Positions 443 through 57,853 of a stretch of DNA of 64,000 nt are shown piece by piece (position 1 is the stretch's first letter; every line of letters starts with the position of its first letter). The notes below the pieces were generated by a model. The model was not told the DNA's origin. It saw only the letters and a list, made by a program, of their open reading frames with translations, and made no database searches. Source of the stretch: a virus (Duplodnaviria > Caudoviricetes); the IMG/VR virus record IMGVR_UViG_3300036987_000310, positions 312,675-376,674 of that record. One strand, given 5' to 3'. Position numbers and translations under genes: made by a program.

Positions 443-1045
443 ATGGACGATGACACAAAGCCGCCTTTTGACGACGAGGGCGCAAACAGCAAAAATGGAA
501 ACGGCCACCTCATAGTTTTTCCCGGTGGGAAGACTATGAACCCGAAGGACGTAGGAGCGGACTTCGTCGTTGGCGGGTCTGGGCAAGTCCCTACTGGAGA
601 GCTTCTTGACCCTGCAGACGTCAAGGCGAGTTTGCGCGATCGCGTATCTTATGTAAAAAGCCAACCCCTTGTGAAAGCAATGGCCGAGGGAGCTTCTTCC
701 GTGGCCATGGACACGCTTCTGCTGGAAATAGCAGAAGAAATATCCCACTTGAAGTGGGAGCGCAGGGAAGCGGCAAAGAGCGGAAGAAGCACGGCACAGC
801 ACACGGTTGCCAGAATAAACGGGCTTAGGGCGTTGGCTGAGACGCTAATACGTCGAAAAGAAGCAGCCATCGCCGAAAATTTAGATCTGAAGTCTCCTCG
901 GCTACAAAAGATTTTTAAAGTATGGATGCAGTTTTTCTATGAAGCCATGGAAAAGTCTGACGTTCCACCAGAAATCATAAATGTTGTTTTCCAGCAAATG
1001 AAGGCCGACATGATTGGATGGGAAAGGCGTATGGAGGCAGAATGA
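443..1045 (+). CDS. Hypothetical helical protein, possible terminase small subunit
   Basis: 200 aa, helical, two genes upstream of TerL; the function call is positional only. Confidence 0.35.
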   Translation: MDDDTKPPFDDEGANSKNGNGHLIVFPGGKTMNPKDVGADFVVGGSGQVPTGELLDPADVKASLRDRVSYVKSQPLVKAMAEGASSVAMDTLLLEIAEEISHLKWERREAAKSGRSTAQHTVARINGLRALAETLIRRKEAAIAENLDLKSPRLQKIFKVWMQFFYEAMEKSDVPPEIINVVFQQMKADMIGWERRMEAE

Positions 1046-1263
1046 TCGGGTCTATTGGCGTATCTTATGATATTGTTAAATCCCTGATCTCTGATTCGGT
1101 TTTTCAGATCCAGGCTGAAGAAGATCGCAGGATCTTTGAAGCTTTGGACGCGGCGTGTCTCCACAGCAACGATGGACTCGGGGTGTGTACTAAATGTTTT
1201 CTTCCGTTTATTTGTGGGGAATCATGTTTGATGTCCGACATTATGTACATCATGGACTCGTGA
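1042..1263 (+). CDS. Small CxxC protein with C-terminal tag (..SDIMYIMDS)
   Basis: ATGA overlap with upstream stop at 1042-1045; CTKC motif; tag shared with 12 other ORFs. Confidence 0.65.
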   Translation: MIGSIGVSYDIVKSLISDSVFQIQAEEDRRIFEALDAACLHSNDGLGVCTKCFLPFICGESCLMSDIMYIMDS

Positions 1264-1406
1264 TTCACAAGTCAATACCTGATCAAGCAGGTTGTGGCAT
1301 TGTTTGTACAAACGAGAAAGTTTTTCTTGGATTTTAGGGTTAGTTTCAATCACCCGTGGTGGCAGATATCTCGTTTTTCTGGTCTCCGAAATCGTGAAAT
1401 GTTGAC

Positions 1407-4400
1407 ATGCCTAGCACAGAAAAGAAGCAAAAGAGCGAACTTGTTAGCGTCATAGACAGCTTCTTGGACGAGAAGCAGGCTGGAAAAGATGAAAACAAGG
1501 TTGAGTTTCTATCAATAATAGATTTCATCGAAAGGTTCAAGCTTCTTCCAGATGGTCTTTTTCCGGTTCAAAAATTCATTCTGAAGTTATACTATAACAT
1601 ACCGCTGGACGACAAAGAAAAAACAATTAAAATAACTGACAGGTTCAACGTCAAAGTTCTTTACGAGTTCACTGAAGTAGAATATCTGGAATTCCTTCAT
1701 GACCAGGGAAGATGCAATATAAAAGCTCAGGACTCACATGTTAGACATGAACTGATTCTGGTTTTGGGGCGCAGGTCTGGTAAGTCCACTCTTAGCGCCA
1801 TCATATCCGCATACGAGCTGTACAAGCTTTTGCGTCGAGTGTGTCCTCAGGCGTTTTACGGCATACCAGTTAATAGCGAAATCCGAGTCCTTTGCATAGC
1901 AAACGACAAAGAGCAAGCGTCCATTGTTTACGGGGACATGGCTGGGTATGTTGATAATGTGGACTATTTCAAATCGTCCATGACAAATCAGACTCAGACG
2001 TTCATGAGGTTTCAGACCGATCAGGACAGGAAAAAATATGGTAAAAACGGCAGGTCAACCATTGCGGCCACTTTCAAAAGTTCAATAGCTAAAGGTCTTC
2101 GTGGACGCGGAATTATATGTTATGTTCTTGACGAAATAGCATTTTTTGTGGACGATGGTAAATGTGTGAAGTTGTCTAGTCTGGTGCGGACATCAGATGG
2201 TTTGCGCACCTTCGATGAAATCTTGGACACCAATAACGTGGACAGGTCCAAGACCGGATGGACTAGTATTCGTCCTATCGAGGTACTTCAGGAGTTAGGA
2301 CACACAGCTGTCGCCACCCGAGTCTATTACGGTGGTAGGCAGATGGTCAGAAGCGTTGTTACCAAGTCGCGCTATAATATAGATCCGACGCCTCAGCACA
2401 GACTGAAGGTGATGTCGGCTAGCGGCAATATCGAATGGAAGTATGTGAGAGATATCCAGGTAGGCGACTACGTTGGTATCAATCGATCTGCGCGAATTTG
2501 GCCTGGTAGATACGTATGCTGTTCGGAAGTTCATCGGGCCAAGAATGTGAGGTGTACGCAAGTAGCTAGGATTCCTGAGTTCTTGGATGATAAACTTGGC
2601 GAGTTCTTGGGGGTGCTAGTCGGAGACGGTACTTGGTGTTCTGGGGAAGATGACAACCTTGTGCAAGTCACTGGTGGGTGCGAGCAGTTTCTGCCGTTTG
2701 TACAGGAGCACTTTGCTAGATATTTTGACACTTTTCGAATCCACCATAAACCACCACATGAGCATAACACTTGCGAAGTGTCTCCGTGGTCGGTTACCAA
2801 GTGCTCGCAGCCGTTCAGGACCTTTTTGGACAGTCTGGGCTATCGCTTCGATGTGACCAAAAGCACAAAGTCCGTGCCATGGGTCATCTTCCAGAGCCCG
2901 AAATCGGTTGTGGCGGCATTTCTTAGAGGATTGTTTGAGACTGATGGTGGGTGTGAGCAGGGCGGCAGAACTGTCACGTTAGCGTCCGCCAGCGAGCAGT
3001 TGATGCGTGAGGTGCAGCTGCTTCTGCTGGATTTTGGCATCACTGCTAGTCGATATAGCAAATGGAATCGCAAATATCAGCGAACATACCACTACGTTCG
3101 CCTGATCGGGTATGAATCGCGCAAGATATTCGCGCGCGAGATCGGGTTCATAACTCCAAGGAAGCAGGCTGAATTGGCCATGGGGGTGCAGTCTGGCCGT
3201 GACGCGTCCAATATAATCCCCAATCAGACAGAGCGTCTGCGGAGGATCCTGCTGTCGGTGCCGAAAGCGACGACGCTGAGCCGAGGAAATGATGCCAGAA
3301 CGCGCATGATACGGCTTTGTTCCAGTTCTGCCAATCCGAAGCGGCGCAGCTCCATATCGTATGGCTTGGCTCGTCGCTTTGTGGACCTCGGTCGTAAGCT
3401 TGGGGCCGACATGAAGGCCTTGGCGGAACTCGATCACATCTGCCGCACGAATTATTACTGGGACAAGGTTGTCTCCGTGTCTGATAACGAAGCAGATGTT
3501 GCAGACTTACTGGTCCCGGATGGGCATGAATACGTCGCCCAGGGCATGACGAACCACAACTCGTCGGCGGAACAAATATATAGAGCCATCAATCCATCCA
3601 TAGCTCAGTTTTCTCCAAAAGATCCGAAGAACAAACACAAAGCGGTTGGTCCGTCTGATGGGCGAGCTATCATGATCTCGTCCCCAGACGCTAGAGATGG
3701 GTTCTTCTATAGACATTATCAGTTATCTCTTAGCGGAGGGCCTGCTTCAAAAAACATACTTATGATTCAGGCCCCCACTTGGGAAGTAAACCCCACTCTC
3801 GACAAAAGTTATTATGAAGTCGAGTTCAGCAAAGATCCGAAGTCGTTTACCACAGAGCATGGCGCGGAATTTTCTGACCGCGTTCGCGGATGGATAGAGG
3901 ACTCGAACGACTTGCTGGAATGTGTGAACCCTGAGCTAAAACCGATCATAAGGGGAGGCCCTCGAGAGCTTTTCTGGGCTGGAGTGGACTTCGGAATCGT
4001 AAGAGACGGAACTGCAATAGCACTTGTTCACTTTGTGAACGGAAAAATTGAACTGGCATACCACGAAGTTTGGTATGCTGGAAAAAATTGGAACGAGTCA
4101 AATCCACACCTGACTGTTCCGCTCACTGAGTATGCAAGAACGTTAAAGAGCGTTTCGCGTCTTGACATGTCTGAAATTTCTGAGTGGTTTCGCGTCTTGT
4201 CGACAAGATTCTATATTGAAAAGGGGATTTTTGATCAGTGGGCTGGTCCAATTTTTGAACAAGAACTGCACAAACGCGGGCTGAAGCAGTTTGAAATGAA
4301 AAACTTTTCTGTATCCGATTCGTCCCATGCTTATCACATGGCCAAAATGTGCATGTTTGGGCGTCAGTTAAGTATATACAATTATCCAATTTCTACTCAC

Positions 4401-5378: not shown

Positions 5379-7169
5379 ATGGCAAGTAAGAAAGTTGGAG
5401 TAAAACCAGGTCAGATTAGCGGAAAGATCACGCGCGTGGACAAGCAGAACGCTGTCCGTACGCCTCTTACCAAACTGGAAAAGCAAGCCCGTCGCGAAGC
5501 AAAAAGTCAGTCCATCAGAGTTGCTGCATACTATGGGGACATGGGCAATGCCGGGTCCATGGCAATATCTGAGGCAAATCAGAATTTCTACAGTCCTCAG
5601 CTTTCCACTGACTTTCTTGAACTTCCTCAGTCAGAAAGAGAAAAGCGAGAACTTCTTAGATTTTGGTATTCGACTCATCCCATCATTGGAGCGGCCATCG
5701 ACTTCCACACCGATGTTCCGATGTCCAAGATACGTTTGGCAGCCCCTAAAGGTAAGGACACGACTAGGAATAAACAAATTCTGCACTTCTATGAAAAAAT
5801 GTGCAGAAGGCTGCGTCTTTTCCAAACCCTATACGATGTGACGCATGAGTATTGGCTTCATGGGAATGTGTTTATTTTTTGCGAGGACCACGATCTTTCC
5901 GGAGAGGTTCCGGAAAGCTTAACATCGGACATAGAGATAAGTTTTGACTCAAACGAAGAATCTGACCAGGAAAATCAGGAAGAGAAGCGTGAAGGCCTCC
6001 TCAAGAAAATAAGGGAGGAAAGGTCAATATCTATACAAAAGTTTGTGGAAAAAGACTACGACGGGTGGCAACGTCTTCAAATCCTTCCGCCCGAGCAGGT
6101 GAAGCTGGAAATATTCCAGTATACAAATCGTGTTCAAATGGAGCTAATACCCAGTGAAAAAGACAGACTCGCTGTGTTGAAAGCTCAAGAACAAAACGAC
6201 CCTGATTCGCAGAAAATTGCTGAAGGTATCCCAGAGCAAATTAGGGAAAACTTGTTGAGCGGCCAACCCATTCCACTAAACACGACTCCATATGATGATT
6301 TTCTCTGTTCGTCATTTTGTTATCACTTGTCTCATAAGAGAAGCCCATACGACGACAGAGGCGTTTCCATACTGGAGAGGTGTCTTCGCACGCTTCTGTA
6401 TCAAGACAAGTTGCGACAGGCTCAAACGTCCATTGCTTCCAGGGCCATGACCCCAAAGCGCATAATCTGGGGCGACAAAATGTCCCAGCCGGACGTTGAC
6501 GATCTGAGAGATCAAATAGACCAGGCTCTAATAGACCCTGATTTCACAATCATTACGAACTTTGAGGTTCACTGGGACGAAGTAGGAGCCCGCGACAGGC
6601 TTCTTGACCTAGGGACCGAGTATGAAATAACGAACAAACTGTTATTCATCGGGCTCCGCATAACCGAGTCTATGTTGACTGGAGAGTCCACATACTCGGG
6701 AGAGCGGATTCACCTGGACGTCATGAACACGATGTATTTGCTATATCGTGAAACATTGGCGGATTTCGTTGAGCAGTATTTGTTTGCTCCCGTCGCGGAA
6801 AAGAAGGGGTTCTGGGAGGAGGACGAATATGGAAACAAAAATCTTCTTTTCCCTAGGCTTCAATTCACTCGGTTGGCTCTTCGAGACAATACAGAGATGC
6901 AAGACTTTATGTTCAACTTATATCAGAAGGGGTCGATGCCCATCGACTACATTTATGACCTGTTGAACATCGATTCTGAGGATGCTCACCTCCTTCTCGA
7001 TCGAGACATGTTCACTGCTAAGGATTCAACCTTCAACGAAATCACCAGAGCTCTGTACTCTCGCATCGGGGAAAATATGGCTGATAAAACAGACGCTATG
7101 GAGAGGGTTGCAAAAAACATGGGGCTTAACGTGACAGATGAAGATGGGGACCGTTTCGGAAAAGAATGA
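5379..7169 (+). CDS. Portal protein
   Basis: 596 aa downstream of terL; portal-like segments (IDFHTDVP, YWLHGNVF, RGVSILER, PKRIIW) and helical composition. Confidence 0.8.
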   Translation: MASKKVGVKPGQISGKITRVDKQNAVRTPLTKLEKQARREAKSQSIRVAAYYGDMGNAGSMAISEANQNFYSPQLSTDFLELPQSEREKRELLRFWYSTHPIIGAAIDFHTDVPMSKIRLAAPKGKDTTRNKQILHFYEKMCRRLRLFQTLYDVTHEYWLHGNVFIFCEDHDLSGEVPESLTSDIEISFDSNEESDQENQEEKREGLLKKIREERSISIQKFVEKDYDGWQRLQILPPEQVKLEIFQYTNRVQMELIPSEKDRLAVLKAQEQNDPDSQKIAEGIPEQIRENLLSGQPIPLNTTPYDDFLCSSFCYHLSHKRSPYDDRGVSILERCLRTLLYQDKLRQAQTSIASRAMTPKRIIWGDKMSQPDVDDLRDQIDQALIDPDFTIITNFEVHWDEVGARDRLLDLGTEYEITNKLLFIGLRITESMLTGESTYSGERIHLDVMNTMYLLYRETLADFVEQYLFAPVAEKKGFWEEDEYGNKNLLFPRLQFTRLALRDNTEMQDFMFNLYQKGSMPIDYIYDLLNIDSEDAHLLLDRDMFTAKDSTFNEITRALYSRIGENMADKTDAMERVAKNMGLNVTDEDGDRFGKE

Positions 7170-7197
7170 ACTTTCCTAGATAGGCTTTGAATGCACC

Positions 7198-9825
7198 ATG
7201 TCCATATTCATGGACATCTACGAGTCATTCATATCAACTTTCTCTTCTGTTCATACTGGGAAAGACCAGTATGAACATGAAGAGGCTGACGTTGAAGAGC
7301 ATATGACGGGACATAGGGACAGGCCCCACAGTCGCGATAACGCTGGGGTTGGGCTTCCTGCTACGTGGAACCGTAGAAAGCGCATACGCCAGAACGATTC
7401 GGACTCCCCCATGCCGGTGGAAGACGACAAAGATTTGTCTTTAAACTACAAAAGTTCTGCCGGAAAGAAAAAATCCGACAAACAAAGGAAAAACCCCGGG
7501 GGGTCCAACGCTTCATCTAGAGTTTCAAATCTTGAGAAACGGTTGGGAAAAATAAGCCCGAAATTCTCTGAAGCTTTTCAGAAAATTGATGCCGAAAAGC
7601 TATACTCTTTAGCCAAGTCTGATCCGTCGAAGTGTTTGTTCATATTAAACGAGAATGAGAAAAGCATAAACGAGGCAGCTTCCAGATATCATGAGCTCTT
7701 TTCTACTGGAAAAAATCTTCCCGATGTCATATCAGAAGCTTGGGGGAAAGCTAACAACGTCTATATTCGAGCTGGAATGGTTGAAGCTTTGCGCAAAGCA
7801 GCCATGGGGGTAAAACTTCCAGACTCGATCAAAGTTCCCATAATGAACTCTAGAGGAAGTAGGATCGGGGACTTATCTTCGATAAAAGCGATACTGAAAC
7901 CGAGAGAAAAGGTGTCGAAACTTCCCCAGGCTGATGTGGAGAAGCTGGTTTCTTTGGCGACGGCGTATAAATCTTTGTCGTTCAATCCGACGAGCATATC
8001 CCCAAATCAGGTTAAAGATGAGAAGTCATACAAAATAATTTTGAAACAGGTACAAGCGCTGTCGGATTTGGCGGCGATCACTTCTGCTTGGCACGGGGTT
8101 CTTTCCCAGTTCAAATCGGATGAATCCGGAAACATAGACATAAGCGAGGGAAACTGGGATGCCGTGCTTGGGAAGATAGACAGTTTTCTTCACAGATCTT
8201 CAACCCCATTGGTGGATTCAGACAAATATTTCAGCGAGATAGCTGAACAGATGAGAGAAAAATACGGGAACATTCCACCAGAGATGGAAGCCGTTCTGGA
8301 AGGATATGGAGCGAAGATTGGGAAGAAAAACTCTGACCAACCAGGTCGCTCGGATGAATATGAGGGAGAAGAATTCTCTGATAAGCAAAAGGAGAAAAGC
8401 CACTGGGACAAGGCTGTTGAAGAGGCGGAAAAAGATTTCTCCGACAAGAAACCCTCATGGTTGACTCGAGCTTATGAAGACGAGGTTGTGGAGGGAGCGA
8501 GAAAGGAACTCTCTGATAAGCAAAAAGAGAGGGAACGTCGAAAAGAAGAACAGGCCAAAAAATCTAAGAAGAACTCTCCTGTAAAACAGAACGAACACCA
8601 GACAGGTCAGCATGACAAGAATGTGGGGGAGGCGAGAAAAGGCCCCGGTGGTGAAGAAAAGCCAGATAATCGAGCAGAGGATAATGCTCTTGTGGCCGCT
8701 GGGGGTGATTCCGACCAGGGTGCGACCGAGTTTCCGTCAGCAGCTTCTAATAAAACAGTTTGTCGCAGAATGATAAATAAGTCAGCAACCTACCATGGCG
8801 TGGTTTGTCAGGGCCACCCGACAGATCCGGCAGGGTCTTCTCCGAAAACTTATGACAAAAGGTACTTCGGGAAGAAGCATTATGACTCGATCCTAGCCTG
8901 CGCTAAAGATTTTCTGAAACAAGATTGGCTGAAGTATGGATGGGGAGAAACTCCCGGGGATGTCCCGACAAGAGCAGCTCTCGATTTGGCCATACACACG
9001 GCCGATGATGGGTTATATCAGTCAAAAATCGACTCCATGACTTACAACATGTTGTTGAACAAATTGGCTGGTTGGGACTTTGATGTCTTTAACGAAACGC
9101 TTTTCGCCAAATCGGAAACTAGAAAGGCTTCAGTCATGGTCAGGAACTCTTCAGCCCAAGAAATTTTGAAGATTGCAGACAGTCTGCGATCCGCCCATCC
9201 TGATTTGTCGATTCAGATCATCAAAAATGTTCATGCGATCATGCGGGCTGCGGCAGAGTCTCAAGACCAAGGTCAGGCCTTTAGGCAAAGAGAAGAAAAG
9301 GATTTGGAATCCAAACTTACTTCTGTGCTTGAAGAGTTTGGAATGCCGAAGGGTCCGGAGCTGAGCCGTCTTATTAATGACGTTCTTGCTGAGATCGATA
9401 AGATTGATAAGCCAAAATCTGGAGAAAAGGTTTCTTCGGTTTCAAGGGCAAGAGTTTTCCAGGCCTTTATTCGAGTGGCTTTTGAAAAGCCAGAGTACAG
9501 GAAGCATGTTCCTGTTGTTCTGGCTGCCATTAAGAAGGATAAGTCCAAGGCCGACAAAGCCAAGGCCGACAAAGCCAAGGCCGACAAAGCCAAGGCCGAC
9601 AAAGCCAAGGCCGACAAAGCCAAGGCCGACAAAGCCAAGTCTGAAAAAGCTAAGGCCGACAAAGCTAAGGTCGACAAAGCTAAGGCCGACAAAGCTAAGT
9701 CTGAAAAGCCTTCGGCTAAAGAGAAGAAGTCCGATAAGTCCGATAAGTCCGACAAGTCCAAGAAGACCACCTCCAAAAAGAGGAAGGCCGGGGTCGTTTT
9801 GGCATCAAGCGACATTAACTGGTAA
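7198..9825 (+). CDS. Large low-complexity putative internal head protein with Lys/Ala-rich tail
   Basis: 875 aa between portal and protease; IRVAFEKPEYR motif; KADKA repeats; possible internal in-frame start at 8770. Confidence 0.6.
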   Translation: MSIFMDIYESFISTFSSVHTGKDQYEHEEADVEEHMTGHRDRPHSRDNAGVGLPATWNRRKRIRQNDSDSPMPVEDDKDLSLNYKSSAGKKKSDKQRKNPGGSNASSRVSNLEKRLGKISPKFSEAFQKIDAEKLYSLAKSDPSKCLFILNENEKSINEAASRYHELFSTGKNLPDVISEAWGKANNVYIRAGMVEALRKAAMGVKLPDSIKVPIMNSRGSRIGDLSSIKAILKPREKVSKLPQADVEKLVSLATAYKSLSFNPTSISPNQVKDEKSYKIILKQVQALSDLAAITSAWHGVLSQFKSDESGNIDISEGNWDAVLGKIDSFLHRSSTPLVDSDKYFSEIAEQMREKYGNIPPEMEAVLEGYGAKIGKKNSDQPGRSDEYEGEEFSDKQKEKSHWDKAVEEAEKDFSDKKPSWLTRAYEDEVVEGARKELSDKQKERERRKEEQAKKSKKNSPVKQNEHQTGQHDKNVGEARKGPGGEEKPDNRAEDNALVAAGGDSDQGATEFPSAASNKTVCRRMINKSATYHGVVCQGHPTDPAGSSPKTYDKRYFGKKHYDSILACAKDFLKQDWLKYGWGETPGDVPTRAALDLAIHTADDGLYQSKIDSMTYNMLLNKLAGWDFDVFNETLFAKSETRKASVMVRNSSAQEILKIADSLRSAHPDLSIQIIKNVHAIMRAAAESQDQGQAFRQREEKDLESKLTSVLEEFGMPKGPELSRLINDVLAEIDKIDKPKSGEKVSSVSRARVFQAFIRVAFEKPEYRKHVPVVLAAIKKDKSKADKAKADKAKADKAKADKAKADKAKADKAKSEKAKADKAKVDKAKADKAKSEKPSAKEKKSDKSDKSDKSKKTTSKKRKAGVVLASSDINW
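9547..9711 (+). repeat. 15-nt coding tandem repeat (AAGGCCGACAAAGCC; KADKA), 11 units
   Basis: 6 perfect units at 9547-9636 followed by 5 variants. Confidence 0.95.
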
Positions 9826-9867
9826 TACGTCTTCTATGTGAAGAAAAAGGAAGACTTGGAGACAATC

Positions 9868-10362
9868 ATGGAAAAGCGCCTCGCCAACAGGATCCTGACG
9901 AATCTCGAACACACTGCTACTGAACTGGAAAACCTTGCTAAAGCTGGGCACATTGATGCCCGTTTGGCTTCTGATCTTGTTGCAAAGATCGATGGGTTTT
10001 CGGATCAGTTCGAAATCGCAACGTTCGGCCCGGACTCGTTCAAGGCTCGTCAAGCAAGAGTGCTTCAGTCCGACAAGGATGAGCCTTACATGTCCACTTT
10101 CGACAATCCCAATAAGGTGATTCAGTCCGATAAGGATGAGCCCTACATGCACACGGCTCCTGCTGGTTTCAATGCGAAGGCTATTGGAACGTTTGATGTC
10201 GACGCGTCGTCCACTGTCACGGATCGGGACGAGTATAACGTTCGGGACCTGAACCCCCATGCTGGCGGAACAAAAAAGCAGCCGTCTTGGAATGGCGGAC
10301 CTGCTGGAAAAAGCACCCGCCAGGGTTCGTACGATAAGCCGGTAAAAACCTGGGCCCCCTGA
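9868..10362 (+). CDS. Hypothetical protein (putative virion protein)
   Basis: GGAGA SD before ATG 9868; internal duplication QSDKDEPYM x2. Confidence 0.7.
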   Translation: MEKRLANRILTNLEHTATELENLAKAGHIDARLASDLVAKIDGFSDQFEIATFGPDSFKARQARVLQSDKDEPYMSTFDNPNKVIQSDKDEPYMHTAPAGFNAKAIGTFDVDASSTVTDRDEYNVRDLNPHAGGTKKQPSWNGGPAGKSTRQGSYDKPVKTWAP

Positions 10363-10402
10363 GTCAATCCGGTTCTCGGATCAATCGATACAGGAGGATC
10401 AG

Positions 10403-11089
10403 ATGCGGCCGGTAATGGCGTTTGTTGACGAAAGGGCGCTGGCAAGAAATTTCAAGACCGGGGACGTGGTTCAAAAGGCCAGTCTTCGCGAAATGCTGCC
10501 TGCGCCATACTACGGCCGTGTTCTGTTTGCGAATGTCGAAACTGGCGTTGTCGTGGTCCAGTGGCCGTGGGGTGCTGAACAAGAATACCCGTCCACGTTG
10601 AATCCCGTTTTGGCTCAGGATGTGAAAAGCATTCTCGACTTGAATCAATGGTATTCAAACTGGGACGCCGCCAGACATGGAATATATGGGGACGAGCCGG
10701 ACCCCGGGTATTCTGCAATGTCTGCAAAAGTAGCTGCTGCTTATGAGCGAAAAACGCTTTCTCTGTGGCGAAATGCGTGCAAGCTCATGCATTACGGATT
10801 CGATGAACTTGGAGCTTTTAAACAATTGAGTTCTGAGTTTGGAGAAGAATTTGGGACTGACTCTGTGCGCAGAACCGTCGCCAATTTGTATGAAACATCG
10901 AGGCGCCTTGCCGTATACTGGCACGATTCAAACCGCAGATATCGCGTCACTCGAAAAGAAAGAGATTCTGGTGTTTACACCTGTCCCAGGTGCAAATCAA
11001 TCCTGAAACCAAGAACTTTTCGTCAAAATCAAAAAGTAATGGCATGTCGTTCGTGTGGTTTCACGATACACCCTCGAGATCTCGTATAG
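10403..11089 (+). CDS. Hypothetical protein with SH3-like N-terminus and C-terminal Zn ribbon
   Basis: AGGAGG SD; CPRC...CRSC. Confidence 0.7.
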   Translation: MRPVMAFVDERALARNFKTGDVVQKASLREMLPAPYYGRVLFANVETGVVVVQWPWGAEQEYPSTLNPVLAQDVKSILDLNQWYSNWDAARHGIYGDEPDPGYSAMSAKVAAAYERKTLSLWRNACKLMHYGFDELGAFKQLSSEFGEEFGTDSVRRTVANLYETSRRLAVYWHDSNRRYRVTRKERDSGVYTCPRCKSILKPRTFRQNQKVMACRSCGFTIHPRDLV

Positions 11090-11123
11090 GCTTAGTGGAA
11101 CACTCGCCTGGTGGGGTTCGATC

Positions 11124-11370
11124 ATGGACTCTGCCAAACCAACACGCTACATAGTTTACTGCCATACCCATATTGAGTCTGTACGCCGGTATACCGGGCT
11201 GACTAGGCGCACGATGGATAAGCGTTGATCTCAGCATGTGTGTCAGTCACGATATGCAAAGAATAAAAACGCACGTTCTTTTGTTGACGCGTATGTTCGA
11301 TCAAACGGAGAAAGAATTTTCAAGGTTTGTGTTAGGGAAAGAGATAAACGTAGAAGGGAATTGAGTACTT
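11124..11370 (+). pseudogene. Decayed GIY-YIG endonuclease, paralog of 45329-46207
   Basis: MDSAKPTRYIVYCHTHIESVRRYTGLTRRTMDKR* aligns with MDSPKPIRYTIYCHIHIESGRRYTGLTKKTMAFRW; TGA at 11226-11228 replaces the Trp; likely later frameshift. Confidence 0.8.
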
Positions 11371-11407
11371 GTCAGCAAGTAATAGCCTTGTTTTAGACCA
11401 TCATGAC

Positions 11408-12022
11408 ATGCTCAAACAAATGAACGCGTTATACCGAATTGCGTCAGAACTCGAAGCTATCGATCCACTGATTGCCTACGAATTCGATCAACATTTGCGA
11501 AGCCTCGTTTCAACAGATCGAAGTTTCATTCTTGAGCTGCTTCCTAGAGAGAAGAACCTGTCAAATCAACTTGACAGAGTTGAACTTGTTGAAAACAGGT
11601 CCGGAGGATGGGACTGGATACATACGAATGTTGACGGGCAGGGAACGCGCGATAAAACCGGGTGGCGCCTCCAGCCGAGTGAAATTTTGAAAATGATTGA
11701 TTCGTCTGTCGAGCCCGGCCCCATGACAGACGAAGTCAAAGCCCTTCTTGAGCAAGAAATGTCTGGTGGGAACCCTGGAGTTCCGCGTGGGTCCGAAATG
11801 ATCGGGGAACCGACGGCTCTTCCTGACGTCGACATGACTGAGACTCCTAGCGCCGTTGAAGAAAACTCTCATCCCTGGGATAGGGGATTCTCACTTTCAG
11901 ATCATGGCCTAGCCTCTCAAAAGCTTGTCAAAAAAGCCATACACGTTGCGTATTCTCGCCCTGACCTCCGTTCTTCTATTCTTCCAATATTGCGAAAAAT
12001 AATCAAGCACAACTCTCACTGA
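11408..12022 (+). CDS. Hypothetical putative internal head protein
   Basis: C-terminal IHVAYSRPDLRSSILPIL resembles the motif in 7198-9825; start could be the TTG at 11369. Confidence 0.6.
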   Translation: MLKQMNALYRIASELEAIDPLIAYEFDQHLRSLVSTDRSFILELLPREKNLSNQLDRVELVENRSGGWDWIHTNVDGQGTRDKTGWRLQPSEILKMIDSSVEPGPMTDEVKALLEQEMSGGNPGVPRGSEMIGEPTALPDVDMTETPSAVEENSHPWDRGFSLSDHGLASQKLVKKAIHVAYSRPDLRSSILPILRKIIKHNSH

Positions 12023-12048
12023 TAGACTTACTATTGGTTTGATTTGGC

Positions 12049-13746
12049 ATGGCTTTCCGAAGGTACGCTCATGCTATAACCACTGCCAAGGATGTGGCCT
12101 TTGACCAGTGGATGGAAGAGATTCGTTCCCAAAATGAGGGAATAGCTTCCAAAAATCACATGAATCGTGTCGCAAACACGATTCTTCGTAAAGCAGACCC
12201 TAAACAATATCTTTTAAGCCATGCAACCATAGTCGCATCAGTTGACGTGTATTCCCCAAAGGGAGTTAGAACTGGGAAGGCGACAAATCGTGGTGTTCAA
12301 ATTGATGTTCGGTATCCGGATTTCAGGATAAAGCCGGACGGACACGACATAGTTAACAATAACGGGGATGCGTGGGAACGATCGTTGCTTCTATCTACGT
12401 ACCGAAGCTTCATCGGAGCGCCGAATTACCTTGAGCACATTCAGCTCCCTCAGTTGTCAAAGGGCTTCATTATTGACGCTATTTCGAGAGATCTTGGGAA
12501 CACCTGTTACATAGATATTCTTGTTGGAACAGACAGGAAGCATGGAAAGCTGGTAGCTGACATCCTTTCAGGTGAAATGTCAGCACTGAGCATGGGATGC
12601 ATATCTTTGTTTACAATATGCACCAAATGTGGAAATATTGCAGCAGACGACGCTCAACTTTGTCCATGTGTTCAATATGAAGGAAAGGGAACCCCATATG
12701 CTGATGAGGATGGTGTACAGCATCCAATATCCGAGCTAATTGGACACGTCAGTGTCCCAAATTCAAATCAGTTTATTGAAGCTTCTTGGGTGAAAAACCC
12801 TGCTTTTCGTGGAGCTGTCAGGAGAAATTTCCTGAACGCTGACACTGTTGCTGTTGCTTCAAAGCTTGGAGAGGCCGCCAAAATTTATGAACTTCGTCGG
12901 AATGAAATTCATTTTGATGATGCAAAACGAGCAGCCTCGGTGAGGAAAGCTCAGGGGCAAGACCTTGGACAGGGGCAGAGTTCTGGGCAGTCTTCAGTTG
13001 ACGGACAAGGACAAGACACTGGACAGGGGGATTTTGGACAAGGACAAGACACTGGACAGGGGGACCTTGGACAGGGGGACCTTGGACAGGGGGACCTTGG
13101 ACAGGGAGATTCTGGACAAGGAGATTTTGACTTTGGCGGTGGCGGAGCGAGCGGTGGCGGAGCGAGCGGTGGCGGAGAATCGTCTGATTCCGGACAAGGC
13201 CAAGGTTCAGGTCAAGGTTTAGGCCAAGGCGGAATGGATGAGATGGTTGAAAAAGCACAGAGTCTTCTTTTGCAAAATTTGGTTAGAAATCTCGAAGAAA
13301 GACTGCAGCCGAAGCCAGAAGATGTTAAAGCTGTTGCACCGACCAACTCAATTGATTGGGAAAGCTCCGGTGGAAACGATAATATAGTGAGATCGTCTCA
13401 AGAATTTTCAAGACGACTACGTAGAATTTTCACAAGTAAAAAATTGATAAAATGGGCTGAAAAAGCTTACAAAACGGTTCATGTTGGTGGAGTTGGCAGC
13501 ATTCGATCAAACAACATGACTTCTCGAGATTTGATAGTCCTTTCATGGATTGAAGATTGTGTGAATGGACGCAAATACTCATCAAATCTTTACAAGATAG
13601 CCATGAATGTTGGCGCGTCCTCCGCTTATCCGAGTTCTAAATCGTTTGTTGCTGCTTGCAGCATGCGTCTCGGACGAGCTCCGACTACTGAAGAGAACAG
13701 ATTCTTCACCTGGAAGGGCAGAATCGCCTCTCTGGCTGAGTTTTAA
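12049..13746 (+). CDS. Prohead maturation protease-like protein
   Basis: FIGAPNYLEH (His) and ALSMGC (Ser) motifs; position before scaffold and capsid genes. Confidence 0.65.
   Translation: MAFRRYAHAITTAKDVAFDQWMEEIRSQNEGIASKNHMNRVANTILRKADPKQYLLSHATIVASVDVYSPKGVRTGKATNRGVQIDVRYPDFRIKPDGHDIVNNNGDAWERSLLLSTYRSFIGAPNYLEHIQLPQLSKGFIIDAISRDLGNTCYIDILVGTDRKHGKLVADILSGEMSALSMGCISLFTICTKCGNIAADDAQLCPCVQYEGKGTPYADEDGVQHPISELIGHVSVPNSNQFIEASWVKNPAFRGAVRRNFLNADTVAVASKLGEAAKIYELRRNEIHFDDAKRAASVRKAQGQDLGQGQSSGQSSVDGQGQDTGQGDFGQGQDTGQGDLGQGDLGQGDLGQGDSGQGDFDFGGGGASGGGASGGGESSDSGQGQGSGQGLGQGGMDEMVEKAQSLLLQNLVRNLEERLQPKPEDVKAVAPTNSIDWESSGGNDNIVRSSQEFSRRLRRIFTSKKLIKWAEKAYKTVHVGGVGSIRSNNMTSRDLIVLSWIEDCVNGRKYSSNLYKIAMNVGASSAYPSSKSFVAACSMRLGRAPTTEENRFFTWKGRIASLAEF
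12952..13230 (+). repeat. Gly/Gln/Asp-rich coding repeats (GQGDL, GGASG)
   Basis: GACCTTGGACAGGGG and GGCGGAGCGAGCGGT units. Confidence 0.85.
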
Positions 13747-13788
13747 AACATTGATGAGAAGAGTTTCCGATAGGAGGCATTTCAGGCC

Positions 13789-15006
13789 ATGCGTCAGCGA
13801 ACAACTTGGAAGCAGACACCACGCAGCGCTTCAACTGAGCGTCGTGCCGACGATCTCTACACGATGAACCGTGATGGTGGAAACCCCCAGCCAGCGGTTG
13901 ATGAGTACGAGAGCGGAGACCCGTCGACTTGGGCTGAAGACGTAAACTCCGGTTCGTCTGTGGAAAAGGAGTACGCAGGCGGTGCCGTGAAACGCAATGA
14001 AATTGGATTCCCTGAATTCAGGGAGGACACTTTCAATCATGCCGGCACTCGTCCATGGGGAAAGGGCGGCCAATACGACAACGCAAGGCTTGCCGCTCAG
14101 CGAAAAGCTGTTGCATGTGAACGTGTTGCGCGCGCTATCCTTCGTACGGATGACGTAAAACTGATTGAAGCAACGACGATGGATCTCATGAGTCTTCCTG
14201 CAAAGGCTCTTGTTGCCACCATCAAGCGCATGGATCAAATCTCCCCCTCCTCTTTGTCGGAAAACAGCCGTTATCGTCGTGCTTTGGCCTGCACGAAGTT
14301 GTCGGCTCTCCTTCTCACCGAGGAAGCTGAAGAAGAGGCGATTGAGCGTCTTGCAACGCTTTTCAACAGCATTGACGATTCTACGCTCAAGGGAATTCTG
14401 AGTGTGGTCGCAACTTCTCGCGTTTCCGGTGAGAGCAGCTCTGAAGAGGACGAGTCCGTCGAGAACAAAGACGAGACTGACGAGACTGAAGAGCCTAAAG
14501 AGACAACTGCTGCTGAAAAAAGCTCTGCAGAAGAGCAAAAAGAGCAGGGCGAAGAAGAGAATGAAGAGGAAGGTGTTTTGACCGATGCCGACCTCGACAA
14601 GCTCAAGGAAATGATGGAAAACGTCGTGGAAACTGCTGAAGCTGCTGAAGCCGAAGTTGAAGCACAAGGCGGAGACGTCGACGATCTTCAGCAACTTTTC
14701 GAGGGTGAGGACGAAGAAGCTGGACAGGCCCCAGCTGGACAAACTTCCAATTCCCCGGTCGACATCACTTTCGACGAAGGTGAAGAGGAGACAGCTGGAA
14801 CGGTGTCCATGGCGTCGGATCTCGATGGCTTGTTTGACACCGATGAAAACGTTGCCCAGCGTGAGCTGCGAGCTGCTCAAGCTAGCAACTTCAACCAGCG
14901 AACTGCTTCGAGCAAAGGTGCAAAAAAGCTTGGTCAAGTCAGAGCTGCGAAATCCGCATCTGTTGATGAAAACCTAGAAGCTTTGTGGGATCGCCCAGCG
15001 CAGTGA
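13789..15006 (+). CDS. Putative capsid scaffolding protein
   Basis: GGAGG SD; very acidic and helical; lies between protease and capsid genes. Confidence 0.6.
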   Translation: MRQRTTWKQTPRSASTERRADDLYTMNRDGGNPQPAVDEYESGDPSTWAEDVNSGSSVEKEYAGGAVKRNEIGFPEFREDTFNHAGTRPWGKGGQYDNARLAAQRKAVACERVARAILRTDDVKLIEATTMDLMSLPAKALVATIKRMDQISPSSLSENSRYRRALACTKLSALLLTEEAEEEAIERLATLFNSIDDSTLKGILSVVATSRVSGESSSEEDESVENKDETDETEEPKETTAAEKSSAEEQKEQGEEENEEEGVLTDADLDKLKEMMENVVETAEAAEAEVEAQGGDVDDLQQLFEGEDEEAGQAPAGQTSNSPVDITFDEGEEETAGTVSMASDLDGLFDTDENVAQRELRAAQASNFNQRTASSKGAKKLGQVRAAKSASVDENLEALWDRPAQ

Positions 15007-15011
15007 AACGC

Positions 15012-15877: not shown

Positions 15878-15891
15878 GAGGAGAAGAGATC

Positions 15892-16779: not shown

Positions 16780-16796
16780 TAGCTCGCTACGAGTGT

Positions 16797-48569: not shown

Positions 48570-48902
48570 TTAGTCGTACATCACCCTCTGTACCATCCAC
48601 TCATTCGTCCCCTCCATCAGCGGGACGCACCTGTCGGAGCTGAACGTGCCCTTTTCCACTGCATAGGCAACGGCGCGCTGGAGATGATACGGGCAGAGCG
48701 CTCTGAGGTGTCGGTTCAGGCCGAGACGGAAGAACATGTGCGAGATGTTCCCGCACCCCTCGACTGGCTGTAGTTTTTGAAACCGACGCTCATTTTCCCC
48801 AATCAGCCTCCCAATGGATTCGCATCTGATCGGGCGTTCTCCGCAGAACGGGCGGGCGTCGGTTCCTGCTTCGTACATGTTTGTTAAAAACTCGCCCATC
48901 AT
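48570..48902 (-). CDS. Small Zn-finger protein with C-terminal tag (..WMVQRVMYD)
   Basis: C..C..LCPYH. Confidence 0.6.
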   Translation of the reverse strand: MMGEFLTNMYEAGTDARPFCGERPIRCESIGRLIGENERRFQKLQPVEGCGNISHMFFRLGLNRHLRALCPYHLQRAVAYAVEKGTFSSDRCVPLMEGTNEWMVQRVMYD

Positions 48903-48906: not shown

Positions 48907-49152
48907 TTACATTTCCATGATCAAAAGAATTTCTAGCTCTTCGTCAGCCACCCTACGCGGTCGCTCCGTAGAGAAACGACCCCTCTTCCATTCGCAGAAC
49001 TTGTTTGCATGGTGTTCGCACAGACATAACGGTTGTTTTCTTCCTGGAACAACCCAAACCTGAGTGACTTGATTAGCACAATAAAGGTGCGCGCCTGCAC
49101 AGTTAACGTTGCACCGTAGTTTCACCCATACGCCGAAAGGGCTACTCTTCAT
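48907..49152 (-). CDS. Small Zn-finger protein with C-terminal tag (..ELEILLIMEM)
   Basis: C..C..LCEHH; start inferred from overlap with the upstream stop. Confidence 0.6.
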   Translation of the reverse strand: MKSSPFGVWVKLRCNVNCAGAHLYCANQVTQVWVVPGRKQPLCLCEHHANKFCEWKRGRFSTERPRRVADEELEILLIMEM

Positions 49153-49366
49153 GGACCAGGCACACCATTTCCTCTTCCGGGGACATTCTGGTGGAGAAAT
49201 TTGTTCCAGCATACCCTGACATGTTCCAGTGCAGAAAGTTTTCTATGTGGTGTTGGCAGACAAACAGGGTTCCGTTGCTGGTTCTCCAGCATTGGACGGC
49301 TTTTTCATTACATAAACGATAACTCATAGCCCCAATACTGCATATCTTGTAGTAATTGCACTTCAC
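49142..49366 (-). CDS. Small Zn-finger protein with C-terminal tag (..EEMVCLVHEE)
   Basis: C..C..VCQHH; ATGA overlap with the ligase-like gene. Confidence 0.6.
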   Translation of the reverse strand: MKCNYYKICSIGAMSYRLCNEKAVQCWRTSNGTLFVCQHHIENFLHWNMSGYAGTNFSTRMSPEEEMVCLVHEE

Positions 49367-50080: not shown

Positions 50081-50488
50081 ATGTCCAAAATCGGATACGA
50101 CGTCTGGGCTGAGCGCAAATACTCTTTTAGATTTGTTCGCATGGCGAGCAACGGTTCTTTCGAATTCGCTATTGCTGACAAAAACGGCCACCAGTTCAAC
50201 TTGCTTTGCTACGAGGACGGCAGGATTGCTGTTGGACAACAAATTCCTTGCCACAGCATGACTTCCCGACAAAAGTCCGGCTTCGAACAAGCGCTGGCTC
50301 GGTTTGTTTCAAGATGCGAAGCCCCGGAGCTCGAGAAAGCTCGAAAAGACGCTATTAAGCGCAGTTGTGACCGTCTTCGAGAGTCATTCTTGTCCAGTGT
50401 CGACGCTATGATCCAAATTGGAATTAGCGCTGCAGAAGTTCGCCAAATGCTTGACGAGCATTTGGTGTCCTATGTGATGAGTGCATAG
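50081..50488 (+). CDS. Hypothetical protein with C-terminal tag (..EHLVSYVMSA)
   Basis: TAAAAT 5 nt before ATG 50081. Confidence 0.6.
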   Translation: MSKIGYDVWAERKYSFRFVRMASNGSFEFAIADKNGHQFNLLCYEDGRIAVGQQIPCHSMTSRQKSGFEQALARFVSRCEAPELEKARKDAIKRSCDRLRESFLSSVDAMIQIGISAAEVRQMLDEHLVSYVMSA

Positions 50489-54155: not shown

Positions 54156-54190
54156 ATCTTCTTCAACTCGCCTTGATGTATGATCTCTGC

Positions 54191-54556
54191 ATGCAGTGGT
54201 GCCATTCTTGTAAAAAATTTGCCGACTTGAAAGTTTACCCTGGCGGGTCGTTTGACTGTCCCACGTGTGGTCGCGTGGAAGTTCCTCGTCACATGCACTG
54301 TGCCAGATGCGGGTTTGCGTGCCCTCATGTTGAATGCGCGGGGATTCACTGCTGTCCAAACTGCGGAGATCCGAAGCCCGTTGGTTCGCACTACGTAACG
54401 TATGAATTTGGGCAAGGTTGCGATATATGTGGCTTGGAAGGACATCCGCCAAAGTCAGGGTATATGGAGTCGGAGCCGTGCGGCTCTCCTCGCGTCGGCC
54501 TTGGCCTCGCGCCAGGGTTTCATGAAGAGGATGTGAAAGAGATAATGGAGGAATGA
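54191..54556 (+). CDS. Multi-CxxC protein with C-terminal tag (..EDVKEIMEE)
   Basis: Five or more CxxC pairs; TATGAT 6 nt before ATG 54191; start could be 54173. Confidence 0.65.
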   Translation: MQWCHSCKKFADLKVYPGGSFDCPTCGRVEVPRHMHCARCGFACPHVECAGIHCCPNCGDPKPVGSHYVTYEFGQGCDICGLEGHPPKSGYMESEPCGSPRVGLGLAPGFHEEDVKEIMEE

Positions 54557-54810
54557 TGCGGTGTTCTACGTGCGGGTTTAGAACCTTCTCAAGCATTGAA
54601 ATGGCAAAGCACCTTGTGGGGTGCGGCAACGTGGACTTGGCTTTGTTTAAGCAGAAAGAAGAGTGCGACGTCATTCTCCTTCGGAAGGTTCAGCCGACGA
54701 AGGTCGACACTGACGCTATTGTGGACGATGAAATTGAGGGGGCGGACCCGAAGGACAGAAGAAATGCAATTGAAGAAGACATGTCGGTTTTGAAAATCAT
54801 GAACCAATGA
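54553..54810 (+). CDS. C2H2/CxxC small protein with C-terminal tag (..MSVLKIMNQ)
   Basis: ATGA overlap. Confidence 0.65.
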   Translation: MMRCSTCGFRTFSSIEMAKHLVGCGNVDLALFKQKEECDVILLRKVQPTKVDTDAIVDDEIEGADPKDRRNAIEEDMSVLKIMNQ

Positions 54811-55271
54811 TTTCTGATGATGTTAAAAAAGCTTTGATCACGGCTCACATGGATGGGGAACGGTGTCCAGAGCTTGAGCGCGAGAAGCTTCTTGAAAAGA
54901 TGAGCGACTTGAAGCCGGTTCGTGCCGTTCTTGTCGCTATTCACGAAGAATATGCCGAGTGGGAACTGCCTAGCGATCAGTCAGGCAACGCTCTTTTGAG
55001 CGGGGGTAAAATAGAGTCGCGATACCACGGGAACTATGGAAAGTTGTTTTCGTATGAGGTTCTCGAAAACGGGCCGCTCGACAGTGCGTTCCGCGGATGG
55101 CTCCGAAGCTCAAGATCCGTGCTCATTAAAAGTGGCAGGAACCCTGAAAAACTGTCTTCTCCAGGGATGCTGTCTTTGAGTCACAACATGAAGCTTATTG
55201 TTGGGTGGCAAGAAGACTATGTGGACCAAGACTCCTGCATTCTTGCCATGAGTGAAACTATGGACGAGTGA
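54807..55271 (+). CDS. Hypothetical protein with tag-like end (..LAMSETMDE)
   Basis: ATGA overlap. Confidence 0.65.
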   Translation: MISDDVKKALITAHMDGERCPELEREKLLEKMSDLKPVRAVLVAIHEEYAEWELPSDQSGNALLSGGKIESRYHGNYGKLFSYEVLENGPLDSAFRGWLRSSRSVLIKSGRNPEKLSSPGMLSLSHNMKLIVGWQEDYVDQDSCILAMSETMDE

Positions 55272-56755: not shown

Positions 56756-57149
56756 CTTTTTTCTCAGGAAGTCTTCTAAGTCTCTCTGATCTGACTGCGT
56801 CGTTCAGTTGCACCAGAAACGTGCTTATCTGAAAAGCAACGAAAGCTTCCGAGTTTGCCATTAAAGCAAGTTCGAACTCTTTCTTTCGTTGGCTTCTGAT
56901 TTCGATCACCTCTTCCGGGAGAGCTTTTGGGGGATCCAAGCCAAGTTTTGACACCCAAGCCAGCATCAAGCGTTGGTCTTTTTTCAAATGGGCTGAGACT
57001 TTTTTCTTGGCCTCTTTTATCCGGGTCGTAAGAGTTGCGGACAGCTCTTTCATGTTGTCGTCTGACAACTCGCTCAGACAGTCAATTTCAAACTGCATAG
57101 TACATACTACACTGAACGGAAACCTGGCCGTTTGTAAAATAACAATCAA
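56745..57149 (-). CDS. Hypothetical helical protein
   Basis: Fills the gap, divergent from 57150; true start is probably internal. Confidence 0.5.
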   Translation of the reverse strand: MIVILQTARFPFSVVCTMQFEIDCLSELSDDNMKELSATLTTRIKEAKKKVSAHLKKDQRLMLAWVSKLGLDPPKALPEEVIEIRSQRKKEFELALMANSEAFVAFQISTFLVQLNDAVRSERLRRLPEKKVKT

Positions 57150-57506
57150 ATGGAATTTCGGTTTTCAGAATTCGAGATGAAGAGCGTGATGCGTGTCGGC
57201 GACGTGGTCGACCTCTTCAATAACCTCGTTGTTCCAACAAAAGTTTTGGAAAAGCTAAAGAAGCTTCTTTGCAAATATGACGATGTGCTTTTCGGGCATG
57301 CTGTTTTTGAAGACAGGAGAGAGTTCTGGACCGTCACATATACGATGAAGTCCTCAAAGGACCCAAAAGTTATCGTGAAGCGCACGGAAGTCATGCTTTC
57401 GGACGGAAACCTGGCATTCAAGGGGAAGAGAGAAGCGCGCGGCACCTTGTTTAGCATGGAGGGTCGCCGCGAATCTAGGGTCGTCAAATCGGTTATGAAA
57501 TCATGA
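57150..57506 (+). CDS. Hypothetical protein with C-terminal tag (..RVVKSVMKS)
   Basis: Overlaps the next gene by ATGA. Confidence 0.6.
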   Translation: MEFRFSEFEMKSVMRVGDVVDLFNNLVVPTKVLEKLKKLLCKYDDVLFGHAVFEDRREFWTVTYTMKSSKDPKVIVKRTEVMLSDGNLAFKGKREARGTLFSMEGRRESRVVKSVMKS

Positions 57507-57853
57507 CCGAACGTTCTTACACAACGGCTGGGTCTGTTTCGAAATCTGTTCGGCCACAGGTTTGGAAAGATTGGGAGCGTTTTTGGAGGAGGCTTTATCG
57601 GGGTTTTTCTACAAGAGAACGTTTGTTTGAGTTTGAATTCGGAACCGTCATCACTGTGGAAAACACCAATTTTCTCCTTCAGTACAAACCTGCCATGGGG
57701 GTTTTTGAAATATCTCTCCGCGATCTTTGTTTTGACGGTATGAAGGAAACGGTTAAAGGCTCTCTGTCTTTAAACGGAAAGCCATACACATTCATGGACG
57801 ATTTCCAAAAAGCTTTGGACTCCCTGGTTGTTAAAAGCATCATGGCTTCTTGA
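57503..57853 (+). CDS. Hypothetical protein with C-terminal tag (..LVVKSIMAS)
   Basis: ATGA overlap. Confidence 0.6.
   Translation: MTERSYTTAGSVSKSVRPQVWKDWERFWRRLYRGFSTRERLFEFEFGTVITVENTNFLLQYKPAMGVFEISLRDLCFDGMKETVKGSLSLNGKPYTFMDDFQKALDSLVVKSIMAS

Follow-up and report, generated by a model that had tools for sequence, protein, structure and literature searches.

MoxR-class ATPases that work together with VWA-domain proteins are widespread and poorly understood machines, and so far each of them has been linked to one client. CbbQO requires a C-terminal H/KR motif common to two Rubiscos that are about 30% identical, and in addition a MIDAS-acidic contact (MIDAS, the adhesion site dependent on a metal ion) (Tsai et al. 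2015, reviewed in PMC5437159). In NorQD, NorD docks on NorQ with its extreme C-terminus, co-purification being lost when its last two residues are deleted, and NorQ's C-terminal helices bind, in addition, to a hydrophobic surface of NorD (PMC13036017). A MoxR-vWA pair with an N-terminal metallopeptidase was described in group 2.2 jumbo phages by Iyer et al. 2021, who, in the sections on this pair, proposed a role in virion assembly and structural-protein processing (PMC7824862). Finally, Kaur et al. 2020 described zincin peptidases and vWA-MoxR genes accompanied by small proteins that diverge but keep a conserved xx-COOH peptide (PMC7159879). Here we report on the last 64 kb (64,000 nucleotides, called the window below, positions being counted from its first letter) of a complete 376,674-bp record of an uncultured phage, IMGVR_UViG_3300036987_000310 (genome G000), which has direct terminal repeats and a guanine-plus-cytosine (GC) content of 51%. 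An earlier note on the window, made from the sequence alone, had pointed to thirteen mostly unrelated small proteins sharing one C-terminal tag. We consider it rather probable that this tail is a portable docking tag read by the extra C-terminal helical domain of a phage-encoded MoxR-class ATPase, working with a zincin-VWA partner. The ATPase is the likely reader because the tag residue at -3, counted from the C-terminus, changes in step with MoxR residue 359.

The two proteins of the candidate machine are encoded outside the window and are both untagged. The candidate reader, a putative ATPase of the MoxR class (AAA_5) of 368 amino acids, lies at genome positions 234511-235617, and its 511-residue partner, with a zincin-like DUF2201_N domain and a VWA-like DUF2201 domain, at 229187-230722. 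The two genes stand within about 4 kb of each other in G000 and in every relative examined, and are embedded in arrays of tagged genes. The match of the MoxR-like core to Pfam AAA_5 is just over the cut-off (E-value 8.5e-5), and the best structural matches of its AlphaFold2 (AF2) model (predicted local distance difference test, pLDDT, 85) were CbbQ2 (6l1q) and NorQ (9qh4-9qhg), with a probability of 1.00. The model also contains an all-helical C-terminal domain of about 110 residues (258-368) which is absent from the CbbQ2 and NorQ structures; residue 359 sits in the last helix of this domain, 353-367. In the partner, the HExxH motif with its further ligand (H96, E97, H100, H105), the MIDAS residues DxSxS...D (D383, S385, S387, D468) and a four-Cys ribbon are all invariant in 51 sequences that are 48-86% identical.

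When we compared this pair with the described systems, we observed that, like CbbQ-CbbO, it joins a MoxR-class ATPase to a VWA/MIDAS partner that would depend on an extreme C-terminal client motif, and that CbbQ2 is the nearest solved structure of the phage ATPase. However, the client of CbbQ-CbbO is one enzyme family, whereas the phage has about 100 unrelated proteins with another motif, an extra helical domain at the end of the ATPase and a zincin peptidase domain in the partner. NorQ-NorD likewise offers a MoxR-class ring that binds the very end of a protein, the complex being weakened or abolished by the loss of the last one or two residues; there, the docked tail is that of the VWA partner itself, on the post-sensor-1 loop, whereas in the phage many clients bear the tails, and it is in the added C-terminal domain that the co-varying residue is located. 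The pair of the group 2.2 jumbo phages shares the MoxR AAA+ ATPase and the vWA protein with a zincin fused in front, but in the sections on this pair no shared client tag is mentioned (PMC7824862). With the FxSxx-COOH systems (PMC7159879) the phage has in common small fast-diverging proteins, a C-terminal peptide defined from the free end, and zincin and vWA-MoxR genes; those systems, in contrast, comprise one or a few bacterial precursor genes with radical-SAM or AP-ATPase partners and a released peptide as the proposed product, whereas the phage carriers are about 100 folded proteins of 40-308 amino acids. A literature search found no paper on one ending common to a large part of a phage proteome. 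If MoxR is the reader, it would be, to our knowledge, the first MoxR/VWA machine with a proteome-scale client code.

With a self-trained codon model we obtained 511 genes in G000, and 103 of them, about one in five, have the ending [VI]-[MHQ]-x-x-COOH, against an expectation of about 3-6. The consensus, taken from the logo of G000 and of G001, a complete 362,524-bp relative whose MoxR-like protein is 82% identical, is E(-10)-x-x-V(-7)-x-x-[VI](-4)-[MHQ](-3)-[EDN](-2)-[SEA](-1)-COOH, with information near background beyond -10. Enrichment over shuffled C-termini, named in the earlier note as a check, was found with the narrower pattern [VI][MH]xx-COOH: 79 of the 511 genes carry it, against a mean of 3.8 and a maximum of 12 in 1000 shuffles of the last 15 residues. 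The pattern [VI][MH]xx read 5-44 residues upstream of the C-terminus gave 2.5 genes. Chance was rejected as the origin of the tag. In a first set of longest open reading frames (ORFs), the excess over background was 4.6-fold for Met and 2.2-fold for His at -3, about twofold for I/V at -4 and -7, and 2.1-fold for Glu at -10. The distance to the free C-terminus is fixed. Indeed, in G000 and G001 together the pattern [VIL]xx[VI][MHQ] stops two residues before the end in 150 proteins, against 0-4 for each of the offsets 0, 1 and 3-7, and M, Q or H stands at -3 in 150 of the 173 [VIL]xx[VI]xxx-COOH ends. Glu at -10 is found in 72 of the 180 tags of the two genomes (about 40%), frequently within L/W-D/E-E. 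In the window, all thirteen C-termini listed in the earlier note are present, with Met (11) or His (2) at -3 and V/I at -4 in twelve of them, T occurring once (54807-55271). The tail would be a short C-terminal amphipathic helix, portable and held at a fixed distance from the free C-terminus, which about 100 small fast-evolving accessory proteins of the phage, 13 of them in the window, would use for docking. We also observed in the tagged proteins of the two genomes a two- to threefold enrichment of Cys at -12/-11, directly before the tag, which many carriers have next to a module containing Cys.

A tail of this kind could arise if a DNA-level gene-end signal (ribosome-binding site, promoter, terminator or start/stop overlap) merely translated into the tag residues. 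The common ending GTCATGGAGTCATGA indeed includes GGAG and an ATGA overlap, and TCA is overused for Ser at -1 (15/34, against 13% genome-wide), which comes from ATGA start/stop overlaps and is the only DNA-level trace. However, the codons at -4, -7 and -10 match genomic synonymous usage, and those at -3 alternate between ATG, CAC/CAT and CAA/CAG, which are unrelated to each other. The spacing to the next gene is the same for tagged and untagged genes, 19 tagged genes have a convergent neighbour, and the same peptide occurs in relatives with a GC content of 36%, 55-57% and 61%. Among the orthologue pairs of G000 and G001, the tag is kept in 21 of 23, with M, H and Q exchanged; five of the 13 window proteins have such an orthologue and in all five it carries the tag at the very end. 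Because M, H and Q are exchanged, synonymous codons are free and the tag persists across GC contents of 36-61%, selection acts at the level of the protein and not of the DNA. The DNA-level reading is therefore rejected on codon usage, gene spacing and GC range, and we regard it as extremely improbable; the overlap constraints that the earlier note had raised do not explain the motif.

The carriers are small, with a median of 114 amino acids, and the tagged genes cluster in the accessory regions of the genome, between 100 and 280 kb and between 360 and 377 kb (97/351 genes there against 6/160 elsewhere, Fisher p 7e-12). Ankyrin repeats, Cys-rich modules and alpha/beta domains occur among their bodies. 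After removal of the tail, 73 of 90 tagged proteins had no paralogue at E 1e-3 by BLAST, in agreement at that level with the claim that the N-terminal bodies differ. Zn fingers, which the same claim had mentioned, fit some carriers but not the carriers in general, since at least two CxxC pairs are present in 4 of 103. The statement that structural genes lack the tag stood: the portal (5379-7169, + strand), the head maturation protease (12049-13746, +) and a 772-residue phrog_2426 protein (18705-21023, +), all assigned with PHROGs, are untagged, and this head module (5379..21023, +) was used as the contrast set of the window. In G001 a reciprocal best hit was obtained for 23 of the 103 tagged genes and for 216 of the 408 without a tag, a fast turnover of carriers.

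When about 20 tagged proteins were scanned against Pfam or PHROGs, ankyrin repeats were the only family recognised. All five ankyrin-repeat genes of G000 are tagged, among them 208420-209913, 219540-220088 and 221146-221619 (genome positions); they end in ..QKVM[SNG][AT] and have about 40 C-terminal residues in common. No homologue of the family was detectable in G001, so the family expanded recently in G000. Such common ends, together with other carriers that are clear paralogues, would suit a different explanation, in which the tail is the last helix of one very divergent superfamily, kept for folding, and the carriers are deep paralogues; the single model made does place the tail as the terminal helix of an alpha/beta domain. 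Against this, the number of bodies without paralogue leads us to reject simple paralogy as the origin of the tag, and carrier lengths of 40-308 amino acids, the diversity of the bodies and an information content at background past -10 also disagree with it. Nor would a helix kept for folding call for a constant spacing of two residues from the free end. We therefore judge the superfamily explanation improbable.

A similar logic may exist in poxviruses, where ankyrin-repeat proteins carry a C-terminal PRANC/F-box-like motif, PRANC being about 40 residues long and binding host Skp1. There, as may be the case here with five of five phage ankyrin proteins tagged, many variable binders of a large virus have one docking motif that connects them with a common effector machine. 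The phage tag differs in its length of about 10 residues and in that the candidate hub is phage-encoded, and the analogy is one of logic, not of homology.

We then looked at residue -3 across lineages. In a first set of 9 lineages, we searched the conserved proteins encoded near MoxR for columns invariant in M/H/Q lineages and changed in both V/L/I lineages. Six columns were flagged in MoxR, 359 among them, and one in a 75-residue protein ending in [FW][VI][FY]G[DT]; none was flagged in DUF2201 or in a DUF6011-like protein, and in a BRCT protein no column changed to the same residue, two changing to different residues. For the larger comparison, 79 metagenome loci with MoxR relatives (named L with a number) were fetched and each flank was classed by tag type. 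Residue -3 is L, I or V instead of M/H/Q in L038, L054/L058, L164, L167, L171-L174 and L176, and mixed in L157 and L181. All 18 pure M/H/Q lineages have Tyr as MoxR residue 359, and all 8 V/L/I lineages have Phe, Val or Ser there. Of 271 variable MoxR columns, 359 is the only one without disagreement in the 32 lineages having at least four tags; the next best columns have 3-4 disagreements, and several of the next-best ones (327, 335, 339, 342, 347) also lie in domain 258-368. With Tyr at 359 (33 lineages) the residues at -3 are M (86), H (28), Q (13), L (4), I (3) and V (1); with Phe (15 lineages) they are L (30), M (22), I (18), V (4), H (1) and Q (0); with Val (3 lineages) L (6), I (5) and V (5); and with Ser (1 lineage) L (9), I (1) and M (1). 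The association held in lineages added later, three further Tyr lineages being of the M/H/Q type. On the MoxR tree, tag type changes 7 times and Y/non-Y also 7 times, and independent pairs on supported branches agree in 5/5 cases (7 pairs over all branches).

In this switch, loss of the Tyr hydroxyl accompanies loss of His and Gln, as direct contact would predict, so that the change is chemically coherent. Residue 359 in the last helix would line a pocket for tag residue -3, Tyr accepting Met, His or Gln and Phe, Val or Ser accepting Leu, Ile, Val or Met. The idea of a modular docking or address peptide carried by many unrelated proteins, raised in the earlier note, gains support from the protein-level selection and the exact register. 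As for the single partner postulated with it, for which a chaperone was on the list, the covariation in these alignments suggests one co-evolving partner, and the specific candidate reader that it provides is what is new here.

Several points weigh against MoxR as the reader. A sign test on the five supported pairs gives p = 0.0625, the lowest value possible with them, and column 359 was chosen out of many. The tag types were assigned with a regular expression to longest-ORF gene calls in flanks of 4-21 kb. If a third protein were in contact with both, a residue of the last MoxR helix could co-vary with the tag through it. In DUF2201, which was scored in only 21 lineages, column 56 shows one disagreement, a weak hint that the zincin-VWA partner may be a co-reader. 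The covariation is also silent on the fate of the clients. The single complex prediction made used the zincin-VWA partner (51-row alignment, Zn and Mg) and the last 40 residues of 50081-50488, and not MoxR; its score was 0.00 and counts neither way.

The signals upstream of the genes differ between the accessory, tagged genes and the structural ones. At 212-257 kb of the genome, a promoter-like sequence ..TCGGAGC..N..GCCGCGTAT[CT].. stands about 25 nt before start codons and is followed by a strong GGAGGTGAC ribosome site. It is found ahead of about 18 accessory-region operons, that of the MoxR gene (234511-235617) among them. The strong GGAGGTGAC site is absent upstream of structural genes (19 against 0), and the motif GCGTAT[CT] is common to the MoxR gene and many tagged operons. 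A further sequence, GTGTAAAC, stands 13-14 nt before the ATG of several genes at 105-138 kb and 262-272 kb of the genome, with a variant GAGTGTAA at window position ~16869; it suggests that there is a second class of promoter, whose leaders are very short or lacking.

These upstream signals bear on another explanation, that the tail is a real address label with a reader other than MoxR, either the prohead interior or scaffold, for cargo packaging through a C-terminal counterpart of the T4 capsid-targeting sequence, or a host machine such as an AAA+ protease for which it would be a degron. Glu at -10 could then be a prohead-protease site and MoxR 359 could co-vary only indirectly. The phage does have a head maturation protease, the enriched Glu at -10 often lies within L/W-D/E-E, and a few tagged genes stand inside the head/tail module of the window. 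Small fast-evolving proteins are also typical injected anti-defence cargo. A virion-assembly role was moreover proposed, in its sections on the pair, for the jumbo-phage MoxR-vWA-peptidase genes (Iyer et al. 2021, PMC7824862). However, about 40% of tags only have Glu at -10, and the strong GGAGGTGA Shine-Dalgarno sequence upstream of tagged genes (19 against 0 for structural genes) as well as the GCGTAT[CT] motif, which MoxR shares, set the tagged genes apart from the structural genes. That the switches at -3 are specific to lineages speaks against a host reader of universal kind, the phage shows no match to ClpP, S41 peptidase or PDZ_2 domains, and an indirect effect does not explain why exactly one MoxR column tracks residue -3. 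A reader other than MoxR is thus possible but, to us, doubtful.

Short terminal amphipathic peptides on unrelated cargo, with one structure as reader, are also known from the T4 capsid-targeting sequence and from encapsulin and microcompartment peptides. The T4 sequence is N-terminal and is removed by the prohead protease (L/I-x-E). The phage tag does not fit this type: it is C-terminal and has Glu at -10 in just 72/180 cases. Other phage-encoded readers were searched for in G000 with PDZ_2, Peptidase_S41, CLP_protease and DNA_pol3_beta_3, and none of these gave a match. A PDZ-domain ligand does not fit on this ground and because the last residue is mostly S, E or A, not hydrophobic. An ssrA/ClpX or tail-specific-protease degron does not fit either, the last two residues being mostly E/D/N and S/E/A and the phage genome having no CLP_protease or Peptidase_S41 match, nor does a sliding-clamp-binding motif in view of the missing DNA_pol3_beta_3 match.

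We return to MoxR as the probable reader. We infer direct binding of the tag by MoxR and what comes after it: the ATPase would act with the conserved zincin-like peptidase-VWA partner (229187-230722), and clients would be remodelled or cleaved, or else be used as interchangeable adaptors taking host targets to the machine. The last version, in which the tagged proteins are adaptors and not substrates of a phage-encoded plug-in machine, seems possible, although we would not bet on it. Each fast-evolving body might bind a different host target, for example a defence protein, while the constant tail would dock on the extra domain of the MoxR ring, leaving the target thus captured to be remodelled or cut by the zincin-VWA partner; the Tyr/Phe specificity switch might keep the tags private to each lineage. 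Such a machine would be the equivalent, in a virus of bacteria, of the ankyrin/F-box strategy of poxviruses. The adaptor version is favoured by the existence of ankyrin carriers and by their co-regulation with MoxR.

In this clade of huge phages, a fifth of the genes are orphans of no known function. The shared address label is a first handle on them, since with it a set of about 100 client proteins can be delimited in each genome. The tag could serve as a portable docking peptide, and clients could be picked out of metagenomes by it with nothing but their sequence.

The tag is confined to one clade of uncultured huge phages. In G001, 77 of 456 genes are tagged, with the same logo as in G000, and the tag is present in relatives whose MoxR is 50-82% identical (G001, L008, L009, L039, L051, L053 and others). 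Where other uncultured huge phages (up to 436 kb) have related MoxR-like and DUF2201 genes, the loci are rich in tags, for example 23/43 in L039. Outside the clade, about 75 phage loci whose DUF2201/MoxR genes are more distant gave a background of 11/1988 ORFs with M/H/Q-type ends (0.55%). No tag was found in phages whose MoxR-like protein is 36-47% identical, and none in 70 genes of the cultured jumbo phage Phosso (Sinorhizobium), which has a distant MoxR/VWA pair. By megablast and tblastn of the window genes we found no close cultured phage, and among 50,697 phage records no MoxR-like protein exceeds 28% identity.

Other endings were observed on the way. In Phosso (L036, PV764938.1 140000-189999), at least eight proteins unrelated by BLAST and encoded near the AAA-ATPase/VWA pair end in ..DA-h-h-F-K-L-x-[HWF]-x, for example those at 29484-29909, 34921-35277, 35712-36026 and 36029-36424 of the locus. 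Between 2 and 11 residues separate it from the end, and it looks more like a common C-terminal strand-helix element than a tag of fixed register. In L069 (IMGVR_UViG_3300035696_000016, 15184-37226), 16 of 52 ORFs end in K-[LY]-x-[LV]-L-x-COOH, such as ..KLLVLK and ..DKYQLLM, and adjoin a DUF2201 homologue that is 33% identical; these ORFs may have a further tail specific to their lineage, or form a tandem array of paralogues.

Two small neighbours of the MoxR genes are conserved in the clade. A stand-alone BRCT protein of about 115 amino acids accompanies the MoxR/DUF2201 genes (genome 223159-223398, L040; L008 17127-17483; L009 14408-14761; L038 15340-15678; L039 11989-12330), and none of its columns followed the tag type in 9 lineages. 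A small protein that always ends in [FW]-[VI]-[FY]-G-[DT]-COOH (genome 239843-240247; L008 6535-6939; L039 5413-5811; L038 13319-13720) has an ending different from the tag, and forms a single orthologous family.

In the window, the coordinates of the earlier note are the low ends of ORFs and not the positions of the tails. The first tagged ORF (1018..1263, +, 81 amino acids) ends in ..SDIMYIMDS, the last 10 codons, 1231-1260, being the tag, and its G001 orthologue (38% identity) ends in ..QIMDS. The ORF at 21023..21283 (+, 86 amino acids) ends in ..NLVREIHGS, with His at -3, and its orthologue in ..VRMVQES, an exchange of H for Q with unchanged register. At 23217..23462 (+, 81 amino acids) the end is ..GIAEVMEE, and ..GIANVMEE in the orthologue (44% identity). 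On the minus strand, with the C-terminus at the low coordinate, 25023..25298 ends in ..ETIVKRVMEK and overlaps its neighbours; its true start is probably the ATG near 25226, giving 67 amino acids. The 110-residue product of 48570..48902 (-) ends in ..EWMVQRVMYD and the orthologue in ..EWVVQAVMLS; just two close homologues of it were found among 5.8 billion proteins. The ORF at 48907..49212 (-) ends in ..ELEILLIMEM, and because its 5' part overlaps the next ORF its start is probably internal. That next to it, 49142..49366 (-), encodes 74 Cys-rich residues ending in ..EEMVCLVHEE, again with His at -3. The frames 25023(-), 48907(-) and 49142(-) are absent from the codon-model gene set and overlap their neighbours; lying within a run of genes on the same strand, they are plausible.

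On the plus strand, the 135-residue product of 50081..50488, which has no Pfam family, ends in ..LDEHLVSYVMSA and shows the full consensus E-10, V-7, V-4, M-3. The Cys-rich ORF 54173..54556, listed in the earlier note as 54191, has an uncertain start and ends in ..EEDVKEIMEE, the G001 orthologue (65% identity) ending in ..EQDVEEIMNE. It is followed by 54553..54810 (85 amino acids, ..MSVLKIMNQ) and 54807..55271 (154 amino acids, ..LAMSETMDE, with T at -4). All 11 homologue representatives of the latter (28-91% identity) end in [TIV]-M-x-x-COOH, with M152 invariant; its AF2 model (pLDDT 75) has the tag within the terminal helix, residues 141-153, and Foldseek found no significant match for this model in the PDB. 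The last two are 57150..57506 (118 amino acids, ..RVVKSVMKS) and 57503..57853 (116 amino acids, ..LVVKSIMAS, no Pfam family); the body of the second is paralogous to that of a tagged gene at genome 214110-214490, and a search of the ESM Atlas with it gave nothing usable. A fourteenth candidate, 35415-35660, ends in ..VFVMRG without a hydrophobic residue at -7, and its match may be due to chance.

Among the other genes of the window, the 335-residue protein of 61165-62172 (+), in the neck/tail region, has actin/ParM-like sequence blocks; its end, ..AQMED, was not counted as a tag because there is no V/I at -4. The 611-residue protein of 25211-27046 (-) has a transglycosylase domain at its C-terminus and a weak YhdP-like match at its N-terminus. 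In the head module, a 1107-residue protein (1407-4730, +) contains an intein with a LAGLIDADG endonuclease (Pfam Intein_splicing and LAGLIDADG_3), whose host protein, given its place in that module, is probably the large terminase. Finally, a 627-residue protein (52021-53904, +), with tagged genes on either side, combines DUF7487 with a Mom-like/GNAT domain and may be a DNA-modification enzyme.

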